DNA of 64,000 nt from Wickerhamiella versatilis (lineage: Eukaryota): NCBI GenBank assembly GCA_030867685.1, contig JAQOWU010000003.1:1116001-1180000 (forward strand), in the 5' to 3' direction. The translations under genes were made by a program, and so were the position numbers. The notes beneath the pieces were generated by a model. The model was not told the DNA's origin, did not search any database, and saw only the letters and a program-made list of their open reading frames with translations. Numbering within the stretch: position 1 is the first letter of the stretch; each line of letters begins with the position of its first letter. Below are positions 40,411-56,538 of this stretch, piece after piece.

Positions 40411-40995
40411 CTATTTTCTTGCAACGAGAACTACCAATGATGACTGCACTAGATCGTCATCACTGCAGCTTGAGCAGCTAACATTTGAATTGTGCATGTG
40501 ACTGGCTTCACGGGACATCAAAATACTAGTTCGCAGAACCTTTGGTTCAATATTAAAATGTAACGATTGAAGCATCCGTATCAATTCATCCGTGGGCAAT
40601 TTGCCATGCGACTTGTTGTAGATTTCAACAATTACAAGCGCGCCCCCTGGTTTTAAAACCTTTTGCAAAGCCAAAAGCATTGCTTCTATGTCATCTACGT
40701 GATGAAGAACTAGAACGGCAGTAGCAACATCAAAAATATCTTGCCAAGGACACTCGGACGTGAGGTCCAGGCAGTGAGCAAACATTTCGTCTTCTGAAAT
40801 ATCATGTAAGTGGCAATTTGCATTGTATTGGGATACTGCATTCGAATCTATATCAACACCAACCTGTTTTCTCACGAGCGGAGCTAGCTCGCGACTCACT
40901 TGCCCAGTGCCACACCCAAGCTCGAAAACACTGAATGTATCATGAAGCACCCCAGTCTTTGCCACGAGACGAGCCAATCTAGGGGCAATGTTCAT
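40411..40995 (-). CDS. Class I SAM-dependent methyltransferase
   Basis: VFELGCGTG, VGVDID, FDVATAVLVLHHV, LKPGGALVIVE. Confidence 0.85.
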   Translation of the reverse strand: MNIAPRLARLVAKTGVLHDTFSVFELGCGTGQVSRELAPLVRKQVGVDIDSNAVSQYNANCHLHDISEDEMFAHCLDLTSECPWQDIFDVATAVLVLHHVDDIEAMLLALQKVLKPGGALVIVEIYNKSHGKLPTDELIRMLQSLHFNIEPKVLRTSILMSREASHMHNSNVSCSSCSDDDLVQSSLVVLVARK

Positions 40996-41094
40996 CTTTC
41001 GAAAATATAAATTTCAATGTGTACTTATATTTGCATAAGACTGGCAGTCCATTCTTTGGTTCTCGAGGACAGGTGACATAAGCCAGGTGTGTCT

Positions 41095-41997
41095 ATGAGC
41101 CGGTTTTTTAAGACTCCGTTGACCGCAGAGGTCAAGTTTGACGATGAAGATAAGCGTCAGTTTATCTCATCACAGGTGAGGAATGTTTCTGATGCCCGGA
41201 GCAGTGAGTTGGCCCCACTATACGACCGTGACGAAAGTGTACGGGGTTTTGTGACGTTACGGCCTCGGGACGGACGAAAGGTGGAGCACGTAGGTGTAAA
41301 AGTTCAATTTGTAGGTCAAATTGAATTAATTAATGATAAGGGCCAGCATGACGAGTTCATTTCTCTTGCAAAGGAGATAGTAGGACCAGGCGAGATTCGA
41401 CACGCAGAAACATATAACTTTGAGTTCAGAAACGTCGAAAAACCCTATGAAAGCTACAACGGCGTGCGGGCACGCTTGCGATACTTCGTAAGGGTCATAG
41501 TATATGGCAAAAATCGCGATGTGGTCCAAGAGCGCGACATCTGGGTGCACCAATTCGAGCCAGAGAGTGAACCAAGTAGTCTAATTAACATGGACGTGGG
41601 AATAGAGGACTGTCTTCACATTGAATTCGAATATACGAAGAGCAAGTATGATCTCAATGATGTTATTGTGGGTAGGATTTATTTTCTGCTTGTTCGCCTA
41701 AAACTGAAGCATATGGAGCTACTATTGCAGCGAAAAGAAATAATAGGTACTCAGTCTGAGATAGAGACTGTTGTCCGGTTCGAAATAATGGATGGTGCTC
41801 CTGTACGTGGTGAGCAAATTCCTATTCGTCTCTATCTTGAGGGATTCAACCTCGTCCCGACAATGCGTGATGTCAACAAGAGATTCAGTGTGCGAAATTA
41901 CCTGTCTCTGGTATTGATCGATGAGGCCGGGAGAAGATATTTCAAGCAGTCGGAGATTCAGCTTTACAGAAAGTTACCAGAGGCATCCGAAGCTTAA
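41095..41997 (+). CDS. PEP8: Retromer subunit Vps26/Pep8
   Basis: KVEHVGVKVQFVG, MDVGIEDCLHIEFEY, FEIMDGAPVRGE, RRYFKQSEI. Confidence 0.95.
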   Translation: MSRFFKTPLTAEVKFDDEDKRQFISSQVRNVSDARSSELAPLYDRDESVRGFVTLRPRDGRKVEHVGVKVQFVGQIELINDKGQHDEFISLAKEIVGPGEIRHAETYNFEFRNVEKPYESYNGVRARLRYFVRVIVYGKNRDVVQERDIWVHQFEPESEPSSLINMDVGIEDCLHIEFEYTKSKYDLNDVIVGRIYFLLVRLKLKHMELLLQRKEIIGTQSEIETVVRFEIMDGAPVRGEQIPIRLYLEGFNLVPTMRDVNKRFSVRNYLSLVLIDEAGRRYFKQSEIQLYRKLPEASEA

Positions 41998-51880: not shown

Positions 51881-52098
51881 TCGCGCCTCGCTCGGAAGCA
51901 CCTGTGTTGATGATTAATACAGAACAGTTTCGGGAAACAACCAGGGCTTAATACTAGCTATGATCTCGATCTGTCGAGGCACGCGTAATCACGACTGGGC
52001 ACGGTTGAAATGCTTATTTTACTTCTATTAGGCTATGAGAGAGTAGATCGATCTAGGTTTTAATTCGTTGCTTACGCTTGATTCAGGGGTCATATGCA

Positions 52099-53091
52099 TT
52101 AGGACGAGAACGTGAGACCCATGACAGTACTGGGCATACTGACAAGTTTGAGAAAGGGACCCTGGCTTACTACCAGAGGCCGCCGAAGTACAACTGTTTC
52201 ACCGACAGGGTCAACCTCGGGACACTCCGCGATGTGGTCGATGCCACCAAGTCCAAGCATATCTAGATTATCAATGGATGCAGTCCCAAAGATATAGAGC
52301 TTGCCAGACTTACCAATGGCAAATGCTGGTGTATTGGAATCCAAAGCAATGATTATATCTTTAGAGGGTTCCGGTATAGGTACTTCACTTAGTGGCTCTT
52401 CATCACAATAGGAGAATACGCGGCCATGGTCAGTTAGCAAGACCACGAATTCGTGGCTAGAGACAACCTTCTCGAAACGTTCTCCCTGCGGGGGTCGAAA
52501 ATAAGGGGCTGGGCCTAGCAGCCCATCTTTCGTGATAAAAATGAGGGCATCTCCTCTCGTGGCAATCATTCTAGCGTTCACATTCTCGTTCAGGAAAACC
52601 TTGCGTCCACGGTACCAAATAAGCCCGCTTTCATGAAGGACGTAAAGATGACCCCACCGGTCGTCCAAAATCTGAACTATTGGAGACTTGTCTAACAAAT
52701 TCAAACCCATACCTTCTGGCGCTATTCTCCCATCAGAATACAGAAAAACAGGGTCTTGTGACTTTGGTGAACGTGTTTGTGACAACACCCCATATTCAAA
52801 CGAAGGATAGCCATTACTTACACCAATATCGATCGCGGTATGATGCGCCTGACATGGCCATTGGTTGTCGCCGCCCCATTCCCAAAGTTGGCAGCTCAGC
52901 CTCGACTCCATTCGTTGAAGCCAGGTGCTTCCAGGTGCTAGAAGAGCATCATTTGGAAAACTTTTTTTATAACAGGTGAATAGATAAGGCTCTGCTAATG
53001 CGTGAAGACCAGCCCTCGCAACATTAACTAGTTCTTTAGGTCCCAACAACGGAAAAATGTGCGTCGCCCACACATCCGCAGTGACTAACAT
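52099..53091 (-). CDS. F-box plus RCC1-like repeat protein (Saf1/Pof9-like)
   Basis: N-terminal F-box-like DVWATHIFPLLGPKELVNV, then LWEWGG, LYVLHESG, VVLLTDHGRVF, GKLYIFG...MLGLG. Confidence 0.65.
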   Translation of the reverse strand: MLVTADVWATHIFPLLGPKELVNVARAGLHALAEPYLFTCYKKSFPNDALLAPGSTWLQRMESRLSCQLWEWGGDNQWPCQAHHTAIDIGVSNGYPSFEYGVLSQTRSPKSQDPVFLYSDGRIAPEGMGLNLLDKSPIVQILDDRWGHLYVLHESGLIWYRGRKVFLNENVNARMIATRGDALIFITKDGLLGPAPYFRPPQGERFEKVVSSHEFVVLLTDHGRVFSYCDEEPLSEVPIPEPSKDIIIALDSNTPAFAIGKSGKLYIFGTASIDNLDMLGLGGIDHIAECPEVDPVGETVVLRRPLVVSQGPFLKLVSMPSTVMGLTFSS

Positions 53092-53419
53092 GGCCAAACC
53101 GTCACGGTATGGTCCTATAGCGATGGAGGTATTGAATAGTCTTTTGGCAAGGAATTGGGAAAACAATGGTTCTTTAATCAGACGCTATAAATTCCTCAGC
53201 CATACTGCTGCTTGTGAGTTTGTGGGCAAAACAGCGAAGCTGGCAGACAAGATGCAACATCATCCTGAGGTTAATATTCGATACAACCTAGTCACCTTCC
53301 TGCTTCACACCAACGATGTTAACGGCGCTGTAACAAAAGTAGATGGTAGGCTGGCGGATGCAATTGAACAATTGTACAGGGATCATAGTGACCAGGGGAT
53401 TGACACGCATGAAAAGTGA
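53090..53419 (+). CDS. Pterin-4-alpha-carbinolamine dehydratase family protein
   Basis: LIRRYKF...EFV...ADKMQHHPEV...YNLV...D..LA..IE. Alternative ATGs at 53057 and 53123. Confidence 0.85.
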   Translation: MAKPSRYGPIAMEVLNSLLARNWENNGSLIRRYKFLSHTAACEFVGKTAKLADKMQHHPEVNIRYNLVTFLLHTNDVNGAVTKVDGRLADAIEQLYRDHSDQGIDTHEK

Positions 53420-53856
53420 GGATGTAAGCTCATGAGTCTATTCTTGAGCGGGCATATCCTCCTCCTTTTTTTTTCCTATATGAGGAACCTTTTTCTGGGA
53501 CGGAAACGCTCCCCGTGCGGCTTATAATACCTCGTGCCGACCAATAATCGCGAGCATAAGCATTCCTTGAGAATTATCTCTAATCAGTATTTCGTCCCTA
53601 AATTAGAGCTGAGGATTGTGATCTGATTTCGTATAATATTCGCGACATACTGCTAGTTAATAACCGTTGACTATTGCTATAAGGGGTGAATGCTTCAGAG
53701 ACGCGAAAATCCATATGGATTAAAGTAGCATATAATATTGTAGAAATCCATACCAAACTAATGCGGCTCTCTCAGTGCACTATTGTGGTTTGAAAAAGAC
53801 TTATTTCTAACCTCGTGCTCAGACGCACGTTACTAAGAAACAGAAAGGCAGATGGA

Positions 53857-55113
53857 ATGGCCTCTGCCATCTTCTTCCTGGATAGTCAAGGGAGGCCCCT
53901 TTTGAGTAGAAATTTTCGTGGAGATGTACCACTTAGCTCTGTTGAGTACTTTCCTCAACTGATAGCCGAATCGGATGAACCGTTCCTGAGTTATCGAGGC
54001 GTTCACTACACGTATATCAGACACTCCAATGTGATATTACTTGCAATATCGCGGAAAAATACAAATTGCATGACCATTTCATACTTTTTGCATCAACTAA
54101 TAAATGCTCTTGGGGACTATGTGAAGACTGTAGAGGAAGAAAGCATCAGGGATAATTATGTTGTCGTTTACGAACTTCTTGATGAAATGATGGACTTTGG
54201 ACACGTGCAAACAACTGATATCAATCTTCTTCGTGACTATGTCACGCAGTCGACCTATAAGTTGGAGGTCTCCCAAGCAATAAGCGCGTTAACAGACAAG
54301 ATAAGTTGGAGACCACCCGGAATCTGGTACAAGAAAAACGAAATTTTCGTAGATGTATGTGAGACCGTGAATGCTATTGTCTCTGCGGATGGTACTCTAA
54401 GCGTATGCCAAATATTTGGATCTATTACCTTCCGTGTATATTTATCAGGGATGCCTCAGCTCAAGCTCGGCATAAATGATCTGAACCATTCGGCAATCAA
54501 GCCCAAGACTAAATATCGAGCATCTCGGTACGTGCCAATTGAGGATGTTGGAATGCATGAATGCGTGAATCTAGATGAATATGAAAAAAGTGGAACAATC
54601 TCGTTTATACCGCCTGACGGGAAGTTTACCCTCTTAACCTATCGTGTTAAGGAAGACCCTACTAGGCGCTCGTTATTTCGCTTGAACCATAAAACTAAGG
54701 TCATTTCTGGCTCCCGTATCCAGATCACTTGTTCTCTCGTCGCTAATTACAAGAAGCGCCAATCATGTACTTTTGCGGAATTTAAATTCCCAGTTCCGGA
54801 GGACTGTGATTCACCTAGGTGTAAGATCAGCCAAGGAAGCATTGTGTATGCACCAGAGGTGAATTCAGTCATATGGCGTCTTAAGGATTTCGCGGGAGGT
54901 CAATCTGCGTCGATGACGGCAGAATTAATGCTGAGCAGAACAGGAGATTCTCGGGTACCCAATGTACCAGTCACCGCATCATTTGAAATTTCGGGTTCTG
55001 CTTTATCAGGGATACAGCTAAGATATCTCAAGATCACCGAGAACATGCTTAAATATGAGGCACTACCATGGGTACGTTACATCACTAAAAGTGGGGACTA
55101 TGAATATCGATAG
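53857..55113 (+). CDS. Clathrin adaptor AP-1 mu subunit (Apm1/Apm2-like)
   Basis: MASAIFFLD, EESIRDNYVVVYELLDEMMDFG, LSGMPQLKLGIND, FIPPDGKF, ALPWVRYIT. Confidence 0.9.
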   Translation: MASAIFFLDSQGRPLLSRNFRGDVPLSSVEYFPQLIAESDEPFLSYRGVHYTYIRHSNVILLAISRKNTNCMTISYFLHQLINALGDYVKTVEEESIRDNYVVVYELLDEMMDFGHVQTTDINLLRDYVTQSTYKLEVSQAISALTDKISWRPPGIWYKKNEIFVDVCETVNAIVSADGTLSVCQIFGSITFRVYLSGMPQLKLGINDLNHSAIKPKTKYRASRYVPIEDVGMHECVNLDEYEKSGTISFIPPDGKFTLLTYRVKEDPTRRSLFRLNHKTKVISGSRIQITCSLVANYKKRQSCTFAEFKFPVPEDCDSPRCKISQGSIVYAPEVNSVIWRLKDFAGGQSASMTAELMLSRTGDSRVPNVPVTASFEISGSALSGIQLRYLKITENMLKYEALPWVRYITKSGDYEYR

Positions 55114-55125
55114 GGTGCTGCCGAT

Positions 55126-56538
55126 TTATATACCTTTACCACTGACATTGGCTTTGATGTCAGATATTGCCTTACGCTGATTATCAAGACTACTCTTCTG
55201 TTGTAAAACTTGGTTTTCGTAGAGTTCATAGAGTGATTGTTCTGTGCGATTAATGGCAGCAATACTACTTGTCTTCACTGACTCTTGATAATTTTTGATA
55301 GCATTCAACCAAATCTTTTGCATTCGATTCAGACCTACTACTATGCCCAGGCCCGCTAGTGCAGTCATAGTGTACATCGAATATCCACCCCAAATTACGC
55401 CTGCTATTGCTGAAAGTGCCAATGGAATCTGAACACCCAAAGCTGTAAGTACGGCATAAACGACTTTTTTCTGTAGTGACATAGACAATAACTCGCAGTG
55501 TGTGAGTGCCTCATTAAGAAAAACTTGAGGATTACAGGAAGCTGCAGCAGCAAGAATTGGGGGTACAGCTTGATCGATTCTTCCGGTTACATACTGTATT
55601 CCAGACTTTGCCGAGGGCATATAACGCCAAGATAGCCACTCCGTTAGCGTGGTCTCAACATCATCAGCCCTTCCATAAAGCTTGTACCATGCTAGGTCCT
55701 TTGTTAGAAGCTTTTCAAGTGAAGGAAGAACATCCCTCTGTAACTCTCGATGTGCACTACTAGCCCATTCGCGGCGCAATGCTTGGATTTCGGCATTGAG
55801 GCTAGAATTTTGCGTCAACGAATTCGTTGCCAAGTCTACTTGGGACTCACATGTTGTGATAATAGATTGAAGGAGGGCATTGCGAATGGCTTTTGGATCA
55901 GTCAGTGTCTCTTTTAAGTGGAATATTCCCGAGCGCTTGGCAAGGTCCGTATAAGTGGAAACATTGGCGGGTGATTCCCTTAAGAGTGCGCAAGCTGATG
56001 AATATTTTTCAAGGTCAATCGGAAGAGTCTCCATTTGGTAAAAGACCTTCTGAAATGGGTTCTGCACACCGTTATGCTCGTGAGAATCCAGTACAACCCT
56101 AAGAGAGGGGAAATCGATTGCAGGGGGAGTTTTTTGAGGGGAACATATGAAAACATGAAGATCTGAGCTTTCTATATGTTCTTGTGAATCTTCAACACCG
56201 CTGACTTCGACATATTCTACCGGCGGGCCACTAAAAGGTATTGGGTACCGAACCATGGAGTTCTGCGTCTCAATATACTCAAAAGAAGGACTTTGAACAA
56301 CAATGGTATCTTTAGTGAATGGCCGATTTGCCAAGGCTTCGCTCCATTTCGATTCGTCAGGGTCTAGAGGATCGGCCACGAGCGCGTCAAGTAAAGGTGC
56401 ACAGGCTTTTCGAGGCAGGCCCCAAGGGATCAGAGCTACCCTTGGAACGCTTTTATTTGCCGCATATGCATCTATCCTTCGCCATAATGCCCCCGTGTTA
56501 GGAAAAAGGCGCTTTAAACCGCGTACACCGGTAGCCAT
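55126..56538 (-). CDS. Conserved fungal probable mitochondrial membrane protein (Mmc1-like)
   Basis: LLDALVADPL, W...AHRELQ, LAWYKLYGRADDV signature, two C-terminal TMs. Confidence 0.55.
   Translation of the reverse strand: MATGVRGLKRLFPNTGALWRRIDAYAANKSVPRVALIPWGLPRKACAPLLDALVADPLDPDESKWSEALANRPFTKDTIVVQSPSFEYIETQNSMVRYPIPFSGPPVEYVEVSGVEDSQEHIESSDLHVFICSPQKTPPAIDFPSLRVVLDSHEHNGVQNPFQKVFYQMETLPIDLEKYSSACALLRESPANVSTYTDLAKRSGIFHLKETLTDPKAIRNALLQSIITTCESQVDLATNSLTQNSSLNAEIQALRREWASSAHRELQRDVLPSLEKLLTKDLAWYKLYGRADDVETTLTEWLSWRYMPSAKSGIQYVTGRIDQAVPPILAAAASCNPQVFLNEALTHCELLSMSLQKKVVYAVLTALGVQIPLALSAIAGVIWGGYSMYTMTALAGLGIVVGLNRMQKIWLNAIKNYQESVKTSSIAAINRTEQSLYELYENQVLQQKSSLDNQRKAISDIKANVSGKGI

Follow-up and report, generated by a model that had tools for sequence, protein, structure and literature searches.

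A shared CATG at the head of two expressed, divergent genes in Wickerhamiella versatilis

Budding-yeast promoters are usually described as nucleosome-free gaps of at least 100 bases between genes. In a stretch of 64,000 nucleotides from the yeast Wickerhamiella versatilis (assembly GCA_030867685.1, contig JAQOWU010000003.1, positions 1,116,001 to 1,180,000 of the forward strand; this whole stretch is called the window, and its own positions are used below), two divergent open reading frames (ORFs) appear to leave no such gap. A gene for pterin-4a-carbinolamine dehydratase (PCD) on the plus strand and a gene for a protein with F-box-like helices and an RCC1-like propeller on the minus strand meet at the four bases CATG, 53089-53092. 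The question that this locus raises is where the two genes begin their transcripts and their proteins, and from which DNA they are driven. The answer that we prefer, with a probability of roughly 0.6, is that they form a zero-gap head-to-head pair of intronless budding-yeast genes with start sites that cross at the shared CATG.

Two genes around one CATG

As a direct reading together with the ORF frames shows, CATG 53089-53092 serves as an ATG on both strands, at 53090-53092 on the plus strand and at 53091-53089 on the minus strand. The local plus-strand sequence is ...GTGACTAAC ATG GCCAAAC..., and 53076-53101 reads ...GCAGTGACTAAC ATG GCCAAACCG.... Any CATG reads ATG on both strands; the point is that here both are the starts of real genes. 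In the ORF listing the minus frame stays open between a TTG at 53166 and its stop at 52099 and has no ATG or GTG above 53091, so that 53091 is the first usable AUG of the 330-aa minus ORF in a eukaryote. The plus frame contains three in-frame ATGs, at 53057, 53090 and 53123, of which 53090 is the second. Counted from 53057, the N-terminus reads MCVAHTSAVTN-MAKPSR... and the two ORFs overlap by 35 bp. A first-pass annotation made from the sequence alone had already reported the shared CATG, the minus frame with only a TTG above its first ATG and a distance of 31 bp to PCD ATG 53123 (53092-53122), all of which we confirmed. It had also placed the PCD start at 53090; this ATG stands, and the earlier in-frame ATG at 53057 had been overlooked.

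The plus gene (53090..53419, 109 aa from ATG 53090) was assigned from a Pfam match, PDB matches and RNA. Residues 28-106 of the 120-aa ORF match Pterin_4a (PF01329) with 66.2 bits against a cut-off of 26 (E 3e-18), and 11 PCD/DCoH sequences of PDB match the ORF at E<=1e-3, their alignments beginning at ORF residues 28-37. The HHPE histidine motif, which has a catalytic role, is kept: QHHPEV aligns with hhp(e) of 2ebb, 1ru0 and 3jst. By profile, the plus ORF is placed in the PCD family. The word-index search for PCD returned one same-species cluster only.

The minus gene (52099..53091) was assigned from homology, a structural model and RNA as an N-terminal helical, F-box-like region followed by an RCC1-like beta-propeller. 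Pfam gave no match to its 330-aa ORF at E<=0.01; at E<=5 the sole match is to the RCC1-like domain PF25390 (13.5 bits against a cut-off of 150, E 0.046), and the F-box profiles PF00646 / PF12937 give no match even at this limit. Using HMMER over 1.84 billion representatives, we found 8 proteins at E<=1e-3, namely a same-species cluster (99% identity), P0002 (62% identical) and distant relatives. In one of the latter, P0005, residues 11-37 show a sub-threshold F-box (20.1 bits with a cut-off of 24.3, and 18.3 with a cut-off of 20.5), and these residues align with the N-terminal helices of the minus protein. The AlphaFold (AF2) model, built on 4 sequences with pLDDT 71 and pTM 0.70, has helices at residues 5-15, 18-44 and 57-65 and then a beta-propeller, the helices within residues 5-44 being confident. 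The top Foldseek matches of the model, which bear on a putative seven-bladed RCC1-type fold, are RCC1, yeast Prp20, WBSCR16, the HERC2 RLD and UVR8 (E 4.6e-8 to 1e-5), with TM of only 0.41-0.46 on a pLDDT-71 model from 4 sequences. The F-box/RCC1 label given at the first pass is therefore fair as a resemblance, the protein falling short of both the F-box and the RCC1/RLD profiles; as judged from profiles, 'F-box-like' denotes a resemblance and not family membership.

The conserved beginning of the minus protein was located by aligning N-termini to homologues, a check proposed at the first pass. In the distant relatives P0004 (422 aa) and P0005 (361 aa), the first residue lies a single position ahead of the Met that ATG 53091 encodes in the minus protein (MHKLPVEIW... 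and MGHLNEDIL..., respectively, against M-LVTADVW...), and nothing in the relatives aligns to the 25 codons upstream. Since the N-termini of the relatives coincide and nothing aligns upstream, we take ATG 53091 to be the family-conserved start. Public gene calls (P0001, P0003 and cluster members) come from automatic annotation, and those of the minus gene begin at the GTG of codon 7 (V), rendered M; they were excluded as start-codon evidence. Strain differences listed inside the minus ORF are synonymous in 18 of 33 cases. In the two most diverged strain proteins, P0015 and P0016, one of 53 positions differs over residues 8-60, and 22 and 19 of 270 positions, respectively, differ over the rest of the protein. 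As a side observation, the C-terminal end of the ORF (window 52127-52194) has 8 strain differences in 68 nt, 5 of which, in 4 codons, are nonsynonymous. RNA depth there is about ten-fold lower, probably reflecting reads below the 95% likeness filter.

RNA data over 51950-53750 came from four runs: X21 and X22 (paired RNA-seq) and X24 (poly(A), single-end), which carry the same-species label, and the contig set X20, which is only guessed to be RNA. The RNA strains are about 1-5% diverged from the window (most reads 95-99% alike). The libraries behave as unstranded, and strand was assigned from tag orientation and read-orientation bias. Both genes are covered by RNA in all four runs, with a summed depth in X21 and X22 of roughly 40-190 over the minus gene body and 55-105 over PCD. 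No splice joints were found in any of the four runs over this region at gene-body depths of roughly 20-190, and two X20 contigs, 52002-53070 and 53047-53534, align collinearly to the DNA without a gap (0 gaps) and are not joined to each other. The poly(A) end of the minus mRNA is probably at 52025..52031, as suggested by the starts of X24 reads (11 of them at 52025 and 12 at 52031) together with the X20 contig 52002-53070. Two further observations concern the outer ends of the genes. Three X24 reads carry a template-switch tag before window 52067 in the plus direction; they may mark a plus RNA with its start in the minus-gene 3' UTR, within the PAB1 promoter gap and antisense to the F-box-like gene. 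Just past the PCD stop, RNA depth falls to 1-4 in a T-rich stretch (window 53414-53474) with partial recovery beyond; an X20 contig spans this dip through to 53534, and the dip is probably due to 3' UTR sequence that differs between strains rather than to the end of the transcript.

Both ORFs are real, expressed genes. One could suppose that one of them is non-functional, either a pseudogene or a frame left open by chance, for the minus ORF does lack a Pfam match at E<=0.01 and has few relatives (8 representatives at E<=1e-3). Against this, both are transcribed, the minus ORF has a synonymous excess and a propeller model with RCC1-like matches, the PCD Pfam match is strong, and the two frames are intact in 5 and 3 strain variants, respectively; we consider the idea very improbable. 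The first-pass annotation had allowed that one ORF might not be transcribed, which the coverage in all 4 runs contradicts. It had also allowed for an intron, with the branch-point-like motif TGACTAAC at 53082..53089 on the plus strand and the TAG at 53118, and introns or spliced leaders that supply the real first exons would turn the overlap into an artefact of unspliced reading. Such an explanation has the motif in its favor and nothing else. The motif is unspliced in these data, no joint appears in the four runs, the X20 contigs run through without gaps and the relatives start at the same residue, leaving it hardly tenable. The intron and not-a-gene explanations are both contradicted by the data.

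Transcript ends and promoters

In order to place the 5' ends, we relied on reads of X24 that carry loose letters beyond their aligned part. In 6 reads the letters ...AGTACATGGG stand before 53083, giving a tagged PCD mRNA 5' end at 53083 on the plus strand; another 6 and 5 reads continue with CCCATGTAC... and give tagged minus-mRNA 5' ends at 53086 and 53089, respectively. CCCATGTAC is the reverse complement of the adaptor ending AGTACATGGG, which we take to be a SMART-type template-switch adaptor that marks the cap end. Among the loose-end reads listed, the transcripts accordingly overlap by 4-7 nt. AUG 53090 is the first AUG of the PCD mRNA beginning at 53083, with a leader of 7 nt. The tagged minus mRNAs begin at the G of AUG 53091 or 3 nt after it, and exclude this conserved AUG.

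Ordinary RNA-seq gave pile-ups of fragment ends that sit 10-20 nt inside the tagged ends. Right-hand ends of minus fragments accumulate at 53067..53069 (18 + 10 molecules at 53067 in X21; 8 + 12 at 53067 and 12 at 53069 in X22), and X21 has a further pile-up of 6 and 8 molecules at 53093/53101, which we read as left ends of plus fragments. Both assignments depend on the interpretation of the begin/end convention. Ends in ordinary RNA-seq libraries fall short of true 5' ends. Read orientation changes at the same place. Over five successive bins, two to the left, the CATG bin and two to the right, minus-oriented depth in X24 is 47.5, 44, 24.5, 7.1 and 4.8, and plus-oriented depth is 8.5, 6.8, 14.5, 46 and 38; this flip at the CATG is as expected for sense reads from two abutting cDNA ends. 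Summed depth in X21 over the three bins around the CATG is 117, 44 and 79, with the dip in bin 53048-53108, and X22 shows about the same dip.

These ends bear on the model of the first-pass annotation, in which ordinary leaders of tens of bases produce long 5'-overlapping antisense mRNAs with start sites well inside the partner. Such an overlap would account for the entry into mRNA of both the conserved AUG 53091 and AUG 53057, which has a good context, and it finds further support in the 24-nt overlap of the two X20 contigs and in the approximately 15% of orientation-specific X24 depth that lies beyond the CATG zone on either side. The tagged ends at 53083, 53086 and 53089 speak against it, as do the depth of the CATG bin (about 40% of the preceding and about 55% of the following bin in X21, and about the same in X22), the flip of read orientation at the CATG and the fact that the X20 contigs are unjoined. 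Instead of a long overlap, the tagged ends give 4-7 nt, and X20 suggests that some molecules reach about 24 nt at the most. We regard the long-overlap model as doubtful.

The two genes lie on opposite strands, both are expressed, and their transcripts overlap at the 5' ends (one run each, in strains about 3% diverged), as in a head-to-head pair. A classical bidirectional promoter, with outward start sites flanking a shared non-transcribed region, is not what was found, as the start sites cross with no DNA between them. The coding sequences themselves share nucleotides if AUG 53090 (or 53057) and AUG 53091 are both used.

For the distance from the TATA element and the initiation complex down to the start site, the available excerpt of PMC7849388 gives about 30 bp, and 50-120 bp for most budding yeasts. 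With 5' ends at the CATG and a promoter distance of 30-120 bp, each core promoter should lie inside the coding, transcribed DNA of its partner, so that the claim of the first pass that each promoter lies within the other coding sequence gains support. Under the zero-gap reading, both transcriptions would begin in a zone of about 10 bp that holds the CATG, with start sites that cross by 4-7 nt rather than flank a shared promoter gap. Each initiation complex would assemble on coding DNA that its partner transcribes, and polymerases of one gene would pass through the core promoter of the other. Transcriptional interference between the two genes would be plausible.

Start codons and their products

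If the tagged ends are representative, both mRNAs would be nearly leaderless, and we considered what each could translate. In the PCD mRNA, AUG 53090 has the context ACTAACATGG with an A at -3. Short leaders promote leaky scanning (Kozak 1991, as cited in the available excerpt of PMC13219423), and the same excerpt, citing Higdon et al. 2024, describes alternative start sites in budding yeast that include or exclude start codons. Because AUG 53090 lies 7 nt from the cap, part of the ribosomes would probably scan on to the in-frame AUG 53123 (53123..53125), the likely leaky-scanning start. The ATG at 53057..53059, with the context AAAAATGT, is outside mRNAs that start at 53083 and enters only RNAs like the X20 contig beginning at 53047. 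Two PCD N-termini, from 53090 and 53123, are likely, with a third from 53057 on longer mRNAs. Between the first two, the next AUG at 53109 opens an out-of-frame ORF of 3 codons with its stop TAG at 53118-53120, 2 nt before AUG 53123; this small ORF could couple termination to re-initiation at the PCD AUG 53123.

The mapped minus mRNAs begin in or just after the conserved AUG 53091. Their in-frame near-cognate codons begin with the GUG of codon 7 (53071..53073, the nearest near-cognate start on mRNAs that exclude AUG 53091), and the next in-frame AUG is codon 61 (52909..52911). Out-of-frame AUGs before 52911 are located at 53075 (15 codons), 53024 (9 codons) and 52952/52949. A full-length F-box-like protein would need minority transcripts that start a few bases further up or, as its frame would allow, initiation at the near-cognate GUG; otherwise the product would be that of AUG 52911 alone, a start which would remove the F-box-like helices. 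The minus product may come by any of these three routes. Up to about 15% of minus-oriented depth in X24 continues beyond 53109.

The downstream starts that the first-pass annotation had named as a way out are partly live, with a 7-nt leader that favors some initiation at 53123 and mapped minus ends that leave out AUG 53091. In the full version of this explanation, the starts are mis-assigned: PCD begins at AUG 53123 and the minus protein at AUG 52911, the 211 bp between them (52912-53122) are leader and promoter, and the CATG is coincidental. The minus ends agree with it, AUG 53123 retains the entire Pfam-matched region at residues 28-106 (the match starts at residue 28, after the codon of ATG 53123 at residue 23), and the short leader disfavors AUG 53090 according to the available excerpt of PMC13219423. 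For PCD, solved chains of 101 aa and 105 aa would begin near ORF residues 15 and 8; as far as chain lengths can indicate, the solved homologues give the best fit to start 53090 (residue 12), with 53123 (residue 23) also compatible. One ENA member, P0012 (98 aa, from an 843-bp contig), is called from ATG 53123; the public PCD calls are automatic, begin at 53090, and were excluded as start-codon evidence. Against the explanation, for the minus gene, stand 60 codons of open frame above 52911, a pair of distant relatives that align from their own residue 6-7 and have the same starting place, confident AF2 helices at residues 5-44, and residues 8-60 as the least strain-variable part of the protein. 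Three small out-of-frame AUG ORFs would precede 52911. Moreover, the start sites would still abut and no promoter gap would be restored. We judge mis-assignment of both starts unlikely.

Several points weigh against the zero-gap reading itself. The most important is that the conserved AUG 53091 lies outside the mapped mRNAs. This paradox is both the weakest and the most interesting point of the locus, and it hints that the picture of start sites is perhaps incomplete. The single-base claim rests on 17 tagged reads of one run, the end positions are those of the rows listed, with further 5' ends possible beyond them, and strand in these unstranded libraries comes from tags and orientation bias. 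The RNA strains are 1-5% diverged from the window, and their CATG is not displayed; the dip in depth at the CATG may in part reflect strain divergence, as at 52127-52194. Under the other begin/end reading, 53093/53101 would be minus ends that include AUG 53091, and the X20 contig start at 53047 implies that some plus RNAs begin further upstream, with an overlap of at least 24 nt. Promoter elements also failed to help. A TATA-like element with a T7 tract lies in the minus ORF at 52964..52975 (TATAAAAA on the minus strand with 0 mismatches, TATAACAG on the plus strand with 1 mismatch), 108-119 bp upstream of the plus start site, and another on the plus strand lies in the PCD ORF at 53186..53193 (TATAAATT, with a single mismatch in position 8), 97-107 bp upstream of the minus start sites. 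We rejected such TATA-like words as promoter evidence, since 5 matches with at most 1 mismatch in 500 bp, counted over both strands, are too many to stand out from chance. A metagenome-contig scan with the two closest members gave 139 pattern matches and 0 confirmed. A scan for the neighboring AP-mu gene gave 12 loci (39-53% identity), none with a PCD, F-box-like or Pab1 relative by tblastn at E<=1e-3.

A bolder version of the crossing start sites treats the initiation zone of about 10 bp as a reciprocal switch, in which polymerases traverse the initiation site of the other gene, the genes tend towards alternate expression, and shifts of a few bases in the start site set the form of the F-box-like protein and which of the three PCD AUGs (53057, 53090, 53123) comes first. 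The F-box-like forms would be full-length (AUG 53091 included), non-AUG initiated, or devoid of the F-box-like helices. This is a speculative and rather improbable proposal.

Related arrangements and significance

We compared the pair to its surroundings and to known systems. Divergent pairs were tallied among ATG-initiated ORFs of at least 150 aa in the window, 46 of which were listed and 5 nested ones removed by hand. In the 9 other divergent neighbor pairs, first ATGs are 99, 268, 444, 517, 528, 572, 647, 922 and 1229 bp apart, and the CATG pair is an outlier among the divergent pairs of the window in this tally. The second tight pair, at window 40411-41997, has 99 bp between the first ATGs of a class-I methyltransferase-domain gene (194 aa, minus strand, ATG 40995) and a Vps26 gene (300 aa, plus strand, ATG 41095). 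By Pfam scan, neighbors of the CATG pair include a Pab1-type poly(A)-binding protein (four RRMs and an MLLE domain) and the mu subunit of an AP complex. The AP-mu gene (plus strand, ends 55113) converges on an Mmc1-family gene (minus strand, ends 55126) at window 55111-55128; since only 12 bp separate the two ORF ends, their 3' UTRs must overlap. Metagenomes with matching reads were mostly food or fermentation samples.

Ordinary yeast divergent pairs with a shared intergenic promoter, as described in the available excerpt of PMC4551913, resemble the CATG pair in being divergent and expressed on both sides. The CATG pair differs from them in having zero intergenic DNA, compared to 99-1229 bp in the 9 other pairs of the window, and in having start sites that cross and do not point outward from a shared gap. 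Closer in layout are mammalian head-to-head overlapping protein-coding pairs such as INO80E / HIRIP3, the expression of which is thought to depend on sense/antisense interplay (PMC11890862, available in part). As far as that excerpt goes, the likeness is that of divergent genes with overlapping 5' ends and each promoter in the transcribed DNA of the partner. The CATG pair is different in that it occurs in an intron-poor budding yeast, with a mapped overlap of 4-7 nt, leaders of 0-7 nt and two conserved start codons that use the same four bases. The third comparison is to N-terminal isoforms that arise from short leaders and start-site choice (Kozak 1991 and Higdon et al. 2024, in the available excerpt of PMC13219423). 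PCD resembles these cases in having one AUG close to the cap, at 7 nt, and another in frame behind it, and the minus gene in having start sites that include or exclude its AUG. The differences are that a single shared zone would expose both genes to the effect, and that the isoforms here are predicted from sequence. A limited search of open-access literature found in titles and abstracts no pair of budding-yeast genes whose start sites cross at a shared CATG. Provisionally, the pair belongs to the known kind of head-to-head overlapping gene pairs, and its unusual feature is the near-leaderless mRNAs of both partners.

The case is one locus in a yeast that has been studied little, and its functional consequences are predicted. 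One consequence for annotation is that gene callers that forbid 5'-5' overlaps shift one of the two starts, the public minus-gene calls beginning at the GTG of codon 7 being a case in point; use of this codon in translation is a hypothesis drawn from the frame. For biology, the pair would offer a natural test case for the assembly of initiation complexes on coding, transcribed DNA, for interference between opposed promoters, and for the translation in yeast of mRNAs with leaders of 0-7 nt. If the reciprocal-switch proposal were true, start-site choice and isoform choice of two unrelated genes would be coupled at one CATG in a cap-scanning eukaryote.

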